Assembly: GCA_965223415.1 (NCBI GenBank)
Contig: OZ245002.1
Span: forward strand, 5,696,001-5,760,000
Direction: 5' to 3'
Length of the DNA: 64,000 bases
Source of the DNA: Myxococcota bacterium
Lineage (GTDB): Bacteria; Myxococcota_A; UBA9160; UBA6930
Position numbers and translations under genes: made by a program. Below are positions 1,957 through 53,854 of the stretch, piece after piece. How positions within the stretch are numbered: the stretch's first letter is position 1; each line of letters opens with the position of its first letter. Under the pieces are notes generated by a model. That model searched no databases and was not told where the DNA came from. It worked only from the letters and a program-made list of their open reading frames with translations.

Positions 1957-2373
1957 ATGCCGATCGACAAGGGTGTCCAGGAGCTGATCGCGGAGGCCAA
2001 CGCACGGATCGAGACCATCGCACCGGAAGACGCCAAGCTGCTCCTCGGCGACGAGCGGGTGCAGCTCGTCGACCTGCGCGACATCCGCGAGCGCCAACGG
2101 GACGGCTTCATCCCCGGCGCCTACCACGCGCCGCGCGGCATGCTCGAGTTCTGGGTCGACCCGGAGAGCCCGTACCACAAGAAGGTCTTCGACGAGCCGA
2201 AGAAGTTCGTCTTCTACTGCGCCAGCGGTTGGCGCTCGGCCTTGGCCACCCGCGCCGTGCAGGAGATGGGCCTCTCCCCGGTCGCCCATGTGGGCGGCGG
2301 GTTCAGCGGCTGGGTCGAGGTGGGCGGCGAGGTGATGAAGACCGAGGACGGGCGGGAGCCGCGCAGGCCCTAG
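1957..2373 (+). CDS. Rhodanese-like domain protein
   Basis: LVDLRD...G.IPGA...FYCASGWRS active-site loop. Confidence 0.9.
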   Translation: MPIDKGVQELIAEANARIETIAPEDAKLLLGDERVQLVDLRDIRERQRDGFIPGAYHAPRGMLEFWVDPESPYHKKVFDEPKKFVFYCASGWRSALATRAVQEMGLSPVAHVGGGFSGWVEVGGEVMKTEDGREPRRP

Positions 2374-2708
2374 AGGACGTCGGCGAAGACGTCCTCGTTG
2401 AAGCCCACCAGCACGGTCTTGCCCTTGCGGAGGGTCGGCGCCCGCAGGTTGCCCGTGGGCCCGAGCATGGCATCCACGCAGGCCTTCGGCGCCTTACCGC
2501 CGGTCTGGAAGGTCTCGACCTTCTTCCCCTTGGCGACGATCACCTTGCTCGCTCCCTTGGCCAGGGCGGTCGCGTCCTTCCGCGACAGCTTCCGCGAAGC
2601 CGGGACCGTCTCACGAACCTCGATGCCCTCCGCGTCCAGGAACTTGGACGCCCGCGTGCACGAAGTTCAGCCCTTCCGGTGGTAGTACCAGTCGATGCGC
2701 TTGGCCAT
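2370..2708 (-). CDS. ArsC/Spx-like thioredoxin-fold selenoprotein, 112 aa, Sec at codon 14 (UxxC)
   Basis: MAKRIDWYYHRKG-TGA-TSCTRASKFL...GPTGNLRAPTLRKGKTVLVGFNEDVFADVL-TAG; frame stays open 98 codons after the TGA at 2667-2669; hairpin just downstream. Confidence 0.85.
2632..2651 (-). promoter_or_regulatory. Putative bacterial SECIS hairpin
   Basis: GCGTCCA-AGTTCC-TGGACGC: 7-bp stem starting 15 nt after the UGA, with a G in the first two loop positions. Confidence 0.7.
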
Positions 2709-2748
2709 GCCGAGGATGTAGCCCTGCCGACCCCAGGAACGCAAGATC

Positions 2749-2806
2749 GGGGACGTTCCTTGCATCTTGCACTCTTCCCGAAGTGCAAGATGCAAGGAAC
2801 GTCCCC
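2749..2806. repeat. REPIN-like palindrome, GGGGACGTTCCT family (GCAAG subtype)
   Basis: 25-bp arms GGGGACGTTCCTTGCATCTTGCACT / AGTGCAAGATGCAAGGAACGTCCCC, 8-nt loop. Confidence 0.85.
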
Positions 2807-2818
2807 ATTCCGCGCTCT

Positions 2819-3310
2819 CTAGCGGGGGGCGGCGAGGAGCTGGGGCTGGCCGGCGACGTCGGTCACGCGGCCGAGGAAGACGCCGGCGGCGTCGTAGGCC
2901 AGGACGCCGTCGCGGGCCTGGACCAGGCGCAGGCGGTGAAGCTCGCCGGCCGCGTCGCGGAGCTCGAGGCCGAGGACGCCGGGCTCGAGGACGGTGACGC
3001 GCAGCTCCTCTCCGGCGGGGCCGGTGGCGACGTGGGTCGTGCCGGGCACCATGGCGAAGGGATTGCGCCCGCCCCAGAACTCGATCGCGTTGCCGAAGAG
3101 CCCGTCGACCACGAGGCCGGCCGCGTACACCGGGAAGAGGGCCATGCCGGCGAACACGGCCCATCGCACCCAGCGGTCTGCGCTCACCTCGCGGTTGAAC
3201 TGGTAGAGCTTTCGCGTGAGCTGGAAGCTCCCGAAGCACGCCATCGAGCTGAGCGGAACGAAGGTCATGAGGACGGCACTGGCCAGCGCCTTCCGGGTCC
3301 GTTGGTTCAT
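2819..3310 (-). CDS. DUF3332-like exported/lipoprotein
   Basis: CFGSFQLTRKLYQFN...PVY...D.L.GNAIEFWGG.NP pattern. Confidence 0.7.
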   Translation of the reverse strand: MNQRTRKALASAVLMTFVPLSSMACFGSFQLTRKLYQFNREVSADRWVRWAVFAGMALFPVYAAGLVVDGLFGNAIEFWGGRNPFAMVPGTTHVATGPAGEELRVTVLEPGVLGLELRDAAGELHRLRLVQARDGVLAYDAAGVFLGRVTDVAGQPQLLAAPR

Positions 3311-3394
3311 GGGTCACCCTCCCTGGCAGGGGAGCGTATCACCCCGGTCGGCGCGGGGAACGCGTTAACGTCCTTCGAAGAGAGGAAGAGCGCC

Positions 3395-7298: not shown

Positions 7299-7372
7299 TG
7301 GAGGCGCCGCCCGGATTCGAACCGGGGATCAGGGATTTGCAGTCCCGTGCCTTACCACTTGGCTACGGCGCC
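7299..7372 (-). tRNA. tRNA-Cys (anticodon GCA)
   Basis: GGCGCCGTAGCCAAGTGGTAAGGCACGGGACTGCAAATCCCTGATCCCCGGTTCGAATCCGGGCGGCGCCTCCA: acceptor stem, TTCGAA T-loop, encoded CCA. Confidence 0.97.
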
Positions 7373-38780: not shown

Positions 38781-38854
38781 AACGCAAGAGTGGGGACGTT
38801 CCTTGCAACTTGCGCATTTGCGCAAGTTGCAAGGAACGTCCCCACTCTTGCGTT
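38781..38854. repeat. REPIN-like palindrome, GGGGACGTTCCT family (GCAAG subtype)
   Basis: Perfect 36-bp arms with a TT centre; 1 nt different from the core of the 53775 copy. Confidence 0.92.
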
Positions 38855-53775: not shown

Positions 53776-53854
53776 AGAACGCAAGAGTGGGGACGTTCCT
53801 TGCAACTTGCGCAATTGCGCAAGTTGCAAGGAACGTCCCCACTCTTGCGTTCTT
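53775..53854. repeat. REPIN-like perfect 80-bp palindrome, GGGGACGTTCCT family (GCAAG subtype)
   Basis: Perfect 40+40 inverted repeat with no spacer, between convergent stops. Confidence 0.93.

Follow-up and report, generated by a model that had tools for sequence, protein, structure and literature searches.

A UGA-containing gene of the NF041106 family

A 64,000-nucleotide stretch of a Myxococcota genome (contig OZ245002.1, positions 5,696,001 to 5,760,000; hereafter the window) carries, on its minus strand at 2708..2370, what is very probably a true selenoprotein gene and a member of the curated NF041106 family; its UGA at codon 14 would be read as selenocysteine (Sec) by means of a hairpin acting as a selenocysteine insertion sequence (SECIS). 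An earlier note, made from the letters of the window alone, had proposed a real selenoprotein at this place. The proposal is now backed by a conserved TGA, Cys at the same position in some homologues, a hairpin with compensatory changes and the presence of the Sec machinery in the genome.

Starting from the ATG at 2708-2706, the frame encodes MAKRIDWYYHRKG, and the next codon is the TGA at 2669-2667. After this codon the frame continues with TSCTRASKFLDAEG... for 98 residues (TSC and 95 sense codons) to a TAG at 2372-2370. Translation of the window confirms what the note had described: an open reading frame (ORF) that ends at the TGA and a read-through product of 112 amino acids. Third codon positions have a G+C content (GC3) of 0.93 across the frame and of 1.0 in the 13 codons preceding the TGA; that of the whole window is 71%. 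In the ORF list made with translation table 11, the frame ending in ...MAKRIDWYYHRKG appears as an ORF at 2667..3317 (minus strand); past the TGA, the gene's own frame is represented by a single fragment of 57 amino acids. A consensus scan of 2250-2950 for promoters and terminators returned no sites of either type. The coding features are as follows.

2370..2708, minus strand: coding sequence of the probable ArsC-family selenoprotein, 112 residues, from ATG 2708-2706 to TAG 2372-2370, translated with TGA as Sec (U).
2667..2669, minus strand: predicted Sec codon UGA (residue 14), which opens the redox motif U-T-S-C; TGA in orthologues, Cys or Trp (W) in full-length homologues.
2658..2660, minus strand: codon TGC of Cys17, the presumed resolving cysteine of the UxxC motif; Cys in 22 of 22 aligned orthologues, aligning with the second Cys of the Spx motif CTSC.
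2436..2468, minus strand: codons of the family signature MLGPTGNLRAP, residues 81-91, defined by alignment; presumed cis-Pro loop of the thioredoxin fold.

The read-through protein matches the full length (positions 1-107 of 107) of the NCBIfam model NF041106 (ArsC_rel_Se_1, "ArsC family (seleno)protein") with 118.5 bits, the cut-off being 85, and this is the only NCBIfam model that it matches above a curated cut-off. A six-frame search of the genome with the same model recovered the gene at 110.8 bits with one TGA. The N-terminal redox motif of the family, Sec or Cys and then xxC, is present as U14-T-S-C17, and in a 24-sequence alignment the residues M81, L82, G83, T85, G86, N87, L88, R89, A90 and P91 are invariant. 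This selenoprotein family had been catalogued before, and the gene, a typical member of it, is not new.

Conservation of the UGA codon and the Sec machinery

The genome carrying the window (5.83 Mb, one contig) contains the components required to decode UGA as Sec. A tRNA-Sec was found with the Rfam model RF01852 (69.4 bits against a threshold of 47) and was called by ARAGORN as tRNA-SeC with anticodon tca. The selA and selD genes scored 497 and 252.9 bits, respectively. The selB gene scored 267 bits, and its 637-residue frame contains the domains GTP_EFTU, SelB beta-barrel, SelB-wing_2 and SelB-wing_3; SelB-wing domains bind SECIS elements. The earlier expectation that the host carries selABCD is borne out by this genome search.

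To what extent the TGA is retained was assessed in three sets of genomes. Among 41 related genomes (the genome itself and members of its genus, family and order), 25 match NF041106 at E <= 0.001, 24 of them over the cut-off, and each of these 24 has exactly one in-frame TGA. A phylum-level sample of 401 genomes contains 107 matches at E <= 0.001, of which 58 are over the cut-off, and again all 58 have one TGA; the majority of the weaker matches are without a stop and are presumably ordinary ArsC/Spx-type paralogues. A pattern scan using one genome per species yielded 596 relatives, the best 80 of which carry TGA at the corresponding codon without exception. The record titles of these species-wide relatives are mostly Myxococcota or "Deltaproteobacteria" metagenome-assembled genomes; further titles name Spirochaetales, Gammaproteobacteria, Binatia, Acidobacteria, Planctomycetota and Opitutales. 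The Sec column is TGA in all 22 aligned orthologues. The homologue comparison that the earlier note had called for thus gives TGA in every orthologue examined and Cys in 7 of 17 full-length database homologues (see below).

Two members of the relatives set depart from the common pattern. The 25th matching genome (G004, same genus) has a split, frameshifted orthologue (L045/L046), with model positions 1-31, including the TGA, and positions 36-107 lying in different frames about 10 nt apart; the genome is in 700 contigs, and the copy may be either a pseudogene with a frameshift or the product of faulty assembly. The lowest scorer of the 24 matches over the cut-off (L044 in genome G015, 90.6 bits) reads G-U-T-S-S-G-R in place of G-U-T-S-C and is a UxxS variant with Ser at the position of the second cysteine.

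A nonsense pseudogene would offer a different account of the in-frame TGA: an ArsC/Spx-like gene hit by a change of a Cys codon (TGC or TGT) to TGA, next to a hairpin that arose by chance. Both Cys codons are one base away from TGA, the hairpin taken alone is only moderately unusual (z = -2.39), and one genome of the same genus, G004, has a split, frameshifted copy. This account fails on the retention of the TGA in all matches over the cut-off (24/24 and 58/58) and in all 80 best relatives, whose titles span several phyla, on protein-level conservation and a high GC3 that hold before as well as after the TGA, and on the full Sec machinery in the genome; it is effectively refuted by conservation.

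An alternative genetic code in which TGA specifies Trp or Gly was also considered and ruled out: TGA is an ordinary stop that ends 12 of the 29 long high-GC3 frames in the window, and it serves as the terminal stop of the selenoprotein gene itself in 6 of the 22 orthologues.

The region upstream of the TGA is conserved as protein. In the 22 orthologues the amino acids of the 13 upstream codons are kept while the codons vary synonymously (Tyr TAC/TAT, Arg CGG/CGC, Gly GGC/GGT, Asp GAC/GAT), which is the opposite of the non-conservation that the note had named as grounds for doubt. The distance from the start codon to the UGA is 13 codons in 21 of 22 relatives and 14 in the remaining one, and GGAG- or GAGG-type runs precede the start in most of them.

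Cys-containing homologues and miscalled database entries

We took the best 120 matches from a large protein collection, 17 of them spanning at least 94% of the query and the other 103 no more than 70-87%, and aligned all 17 full-length proteins together with six of the short ones. In the full-length homologues, the Sec column holds Cys in seven and Trp in ten (P0007, P0010, P0015, P0030, P0039, P0049, P0050, P0052, P0056 and P0058). Judged from the protein entries, the Trp residues are most simply explained as TGA codons translated under a TGA=Trp code by some metagenome pipelines. Cys- and UGA-containing forms of the protein both exist, which is the usual hallmark of a selenoprotein family.

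The six short forms that were aligned all begin downstream of the TGA, and with 103 of the best 120 database proteins being short, the prediction that gene callers truncate this gene proved right. The prevalence of such entries, together with the lack of an obvious Shine-Dalgarno run at the ATG of the window copy, would fit a real gene that encodes a shorter protein starting past the TGA, with the 13 upstream codons forming an untranslated leader. Such a protein, however, would be without the first strand of the fold and without its U/CxxC motif. Synonymous changes leave the amino acids encoded upstream conserved, the start 13 codons upstream is present in 21 of 22 relatives, mostly with a GGAG- or GAGG-type run, and the seven Cys homologues are continuous full-length ORFs. 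We regard a shorter gene product as highly improbable and the 112-residue selenoprotein as the very probable product of the gene.

The practical value of the finding lies in annotation: standard gene callers shorten the gene or read its TGA as Trp, and selenoproteome counts that are based on automatic calls consequently miss it.

A conserved hairpin downstream of the UGA

The 7-bp hairpin that the note had reported 15 nt after the UGA is confirmed as a perfect inverted repeat, with arms GCGTCCA at 2651-2645 and TGGACGC at 2638-2632 enclosing the loop AGTTCC. Two structural features were delineated.

2632..2651, minus strand: putative core SECIS hairpin, 7-bp stem GCGUCCA/UGGACGC, loop AGUUCC, 15 nt after the UGA; perfect inverted repeat, recovered in the minimum free energy (MFE) fold and by RNAalifold, with covariation.
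2614..2669, minus strand: possible extended lower stem pairing the UGA region with downstream codons; seen in the MFE fold, weakly supported.

Folded in isolation, the 66-nt stretch has a free energy of -28.7 kcal/mol (z = -2.39), and 3 of 200 shuffled sequences are as stable; the stability of the hairpin is thus only moderately unusual, and is suggestive rather than decisive. The hairpin evidence carries weight because the structure is conserved in position across orthologous loci. In each of the 48 orthologous loci retrieved by genome search, a hairpin of 5 or more unbroken pairs occupies the same position. The stem measures 7 bp in 24 loci, 8 bp in 18, 6 bp in two and 5 bp in four; it begins 15 nt after the UGA in 42 of the 48, and the loop contains GUU in 47. 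The core hairpin is also recovered in the RNAalifold consensus of 22 sequences. The lower stem is similar in the nearest relative (L024) and variable in the others.

Covariation was evaluated on 128 segments of 57 nt, 105 of which are distinct. In the distinct sequences, standard pairs fill 95.8% of the cells; sliding the partner by 1-3 columns lowers this share to 24.4-36.3%. Changes on both sides occur in four of the seven stem pairs: G-C to U-A in three sequences at one pair; G-C to A-U in seven and to U-A in one at a second; U-A to C-G in one at a third; and C-G to A-U and to G-U in one each at a fourth. Divergent members (L047, L049, L050, L051 and L061) encode other residues and form other stems, namely UCGCAAG/CUUGCGA, UCGCAGG/CUUGCGA, GCCAGG/CCUGGC, CCCAGG/CCUGGG and, in L047, one with a bulged U, while presenting the same AGUU loop in the same alignment column. 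Codon usage points in the same direction: the Ser codon within the stem is invariably TCC in the 22 orthologues, whereas the equally conserved Ser of the UTSC motif is encoded by four different codons (TCG in one, AGC in eight, TCC in eight and TCT in five).

Next to the stem, the conserved Arg codon at position +5 after the UGA (2654-2652) is CGA in 17 of 22 orthologues, AGA in two and CGG in three, the window copy having CGG. This bias towards CGA suggests a nucleotide-level constraint beside the stem. An Rfam scan of 2200-2900 at E <= 1 gave no match on the hairpin, the scan including no bacterial SECIS covariance model.

Predicted fold and possible function

Following the established bacterial mechanism, translation would begin at the ATG 13 codons before the UGA, and the hairpin 15 nt past the UGA would act as a bacterial SECIS that recruits SelB, GTP and Sec-tRNA(Sec) to the ribosome. 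UGA-14 would thereby be read as Sec. The predicted product, 112 residues long, has a thioredoxin fold and belongs to the ArsC/Spx/YffB superfamily; its Cys17 lies three residues past Sec14. The pair could cycle between a selenol/thiol and a selenenylsulfide state, in the manner of a redox switch or of a small oxidoreductase resembling glutaredoxin or Spx.

An AlphaFold2 model based on the 24-sequence alignment is of high confidence, with a mean predicted local distance difference test score (pLDDT) of 92.9 and a predicted template modelling score (pTM) of 0.84. Residues 7-10 form strand 1 and residues 15-26 form helix 1, which places Sec14 immediately ahead of the N-terminus of helix 1. This is where thioredoxin-fold proteins have the first Cys of their CxxC motif, just ahead of the first helix. 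The predicted fold is nearest to ArsC-related, Spx and YffB proteins. Spx is the redox-sensing, RNA polymerase-binding regulator of Bacillus subtilis (Protein Data Bank (PDB) entries 1z3e, 3gfk, 3ihq and 6gho), and the top Foldseek match is Spx 6gho_A (E 6e-4, template modelling (TM) scores 0.56/0.50). A profile of the family matches Spx structures with E 2.8e-7; in this alignment, the Sec14 column and Cys17 fall on the two Cys of the Spx motif CTSC, and GNLRAP falls on GLLRRP. On the ArsC-superfamily chains ranked 1-11, only 84-91 of the 112 residues superpose, and the model has a central beta hairpin (residues 55-60 and 63-68). The central beta hairpin and the partial superposition mark the family as a distinct branch of the ArsC/Spx/YffB superfamily.

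The earlier note had ascribed to ArsC/Spx proteins an N-terminal CxxC and a C-terminal motif. The C-terminal motif, LRAPTLRKGKTVLVGF, is found in the read-through protein. The attribution of the CxxC stands for Spx and has to be withdrawn for ArsC: an N-terminal CxxC is a trait of Spx and not of the arsenate reductase ArsC proper, which is of the single-Cys type.

The boldest reading of these likenesses is that the protein is a selenium-dependent, Spx-like redox sensor whose target would be another protein, RNA polymerase for instance, rather than a free oxidoreductase. The reading is prompted by the members in the sampled genomes, which all use Sec and never Cys, by the alignment of the motif with CTSC of Spx, and by the lack of a conserved partner gene. 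If it were true, Myxococcota and other non-Firmicutes lineages would possess a Sec-based transcriptional stress switch in place of a housekeeping oxidoreductase. Yet the Spx/MgsR models score well under their cut-offs (TIGR01617, 24 against 75.05; NF002459, 19.2 against 123), the central beta hairpin and the limited superposition set the model apart from Spx, and the relatives carry titles such as Myxococcota, whereas Spx is not known outside the Firmicutes. Both the sensor and, more specifically, a Sec-containing regulator that binds RNA polymerase are unlikely on this evidence.

Less likely still is a glutaredoxin-coupled, ArsC-type arsenate reductase with Sec in place of the catalytic Cys. 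The arsenate-reductase equivalog TIGR00014 is absent from the six NCBIfam families that match this protein at E <= 0.01, the Pfam ArsC score is under threshold, and the dithiol-like UxxC motif resembles Spx and not the single-Cys ArsC. No ars genes are nearby: the neighbours encode a rhodanese, an enoyl-CoA hydratase, a DUF3332 protein and a beta-lactamase-family protein. Nor is any neighbour conserved. In tblastn searches of these four against the 48 orthologous loci, the rhodanese was found in two, DUF3332 in one, the enoyl-CoA hydratase in three and the beta-lactamase-family protein in two. All-against-all clustering of stop-to-stop frames from the same loci gave no true neighbour cluster above 10 of 48, the large clusters consisting only of frames that overlap the gene. 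Arsenate reduction and Spx-like regulation may both be kept as minor possibilities beside the small oxidoreductase.

Several observations weigh against the selenoprotein reading or limit what it says about function. The redox chemistry and the role as an oxidoreductase, which we consider most likely, are suggested by homology only, and no conserved neighbour among the 48 loci backs any pathway. The Pfam model ArsC (PF03960) gives 19 bits, under its gathering score of 24. The ATG of this copy has no clear Shine-Dalgarno run ahead of it (GGCAGGGCTACATCCTCGGC-ATG), unlike most relatives, a small point against efficient initiation. For the hairpin, the covariation score of 0.115 compares with 0.067 for shuffled data and was reached by none of 500 shuffles, which ignore the kinship of the sequences; RNAalifold gives the 22 closest sequences a covariation term of only -0.08. 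Of the 105 distinct sequences, nine have a non-standard pair 3, and five, all from a distant clade with a shifted 3' arm, break pairs 1 and 2 in this register. Most stem pairs hardly vary, and the stem encodes the conserved residues A-S-K-F-L-D-A, so part of its constancy may reflect constraint on the protein. The codon bias of the Ser within the stem, the changes on both sides of pairs and the divergent stems with the same loop nevertheless go beyond protein constraint, and we retain the assignment of a UGA-decoded selenoprotein gene as very probable.

Genomic neighbourhood

The conserved neighbourhood was dropped as a clue to function, since the tblastn searches and the clustering over the 48 loci were uninformative. 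The rhodanese-domain gene (1957-2373, plus strand; Pfam score 64.3 bits, active-site-like motif CASGWRS) is convergent with the selenoprotein gene, and the stops of the two genes overlap by 4 nt in the palindrome CTAG. Only two of the 48 loci, that of this genome and that of its nearest relative, show the pairing with a rhodanese. Directly past the rhodanese stop, within the last codons of the selenoprotein gene, lies a perfect 9-bp inverted repeat at 2373-2396 (GAGGACGTC ... GACGTCCTC, 6-nt spacer). No run of T follows it, and it was not called in the terminator scan of 2250-2950.

A perfect inverted repeat, with arms of 25 nt and a spacer of 8 nt, occupies 2749-2806 in the interval that separates the DUF3332 gene from the selenoprotein gene, and further copies are found at about 38792-38843 and 53789-53840. 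The arm of this repeat occurs with at most 3 mismatches at 90 places in the genome (43 forward and 47 reverse), mostly as paired arms, against 0 and 0 for a control with the reversed pattern. The repeat is a dispersed palindromic element resembling repetitive extragenic palindromic (REP) sequences, with roughly 45 copies. The only Rfam matches in 2200-2900 at E <= 1 are sub-threshold microRNA-precursor matches on the palindrome at 2743-2812. The sole tRNA gene in the window is a tRNA-Cys (gca) at 7299-7372 on the minus strand.

Comparison with known systems

Like the SECIS element of the Escherichia coli fdhF type, which is an intragenic stem-loop at a fixed short distance past the UGA, its apical loop containing G and U and its stem a bulged U, the hairpin described here lies at a fixed short distance past the UGA inside the gene and has G and U in its apical loop; a bulged U is seen in the stem of the distant member L047. 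Its stem and loop sequences are particular to the ArsC selenoprotein family.

With respect to the protein, the residues U14 and C17 fall on the N-terminal CxxC switch of Spx, with the difference that Sec replaces the first Cys; the Spx family models are far under their cut-offs, and the central region of the model differs. YffB (PA3664, PDB 1rw1) has low sequence similarity (profile E 0.001), and its entry contains no Sec. The same holds for the ArsC-related protein of Bacteroides fragilis (PDB 3gkx), which is of low similarity (profile E 0.012) and has no Sec. Compared with the NF041106 family itself, we found no distinguishing trait save the missing clear Shine-Dalgarno run that most relatives have.

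"ArsC-like" selenoproteins were listed for Desulfotalea psychrophila and Desulfuromonas acetoxidans by Zhang et al. 2006 (PMC1794560). The Global Ocean Sampling (GOS) selenoproteome contains a group "Arsenate reductase 2, cd03032, UxxC", to which 42 Sec sequences and 238 Cys homologues are assigned, and a separate "Arsenate reductase 1" group that has UxxS and not UxxC (2008, PMC2398784). A 2022 review carries an entry "Arsenate reductase-like protein, COG1393, UxxC" that cites the GOS paper (PMC9312934). As a discovery the present gene has little weight, a curated NCBI model being in place and ArsC-like UxxC selenoproteins having been catalogued since 2006-2008. The literature, in the parts available, yielded no experimental study or tested function for any family member; experimental work on any of them would be new biology, for which the window itself gives no special lead. 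The NF041106 family appears to correspond to the published "Arsenate reductase 2" group, the two being equated by shared motif and domain labels only. The gene in the window and the published ArsC-like and "Arsenate reductase 2" proteins have in common the ArsC/Spx-related thioredoxin fold, the UxxC motif, and their prediction from the pairing of UGA- and Cys-containing forms together with a SECIS element.

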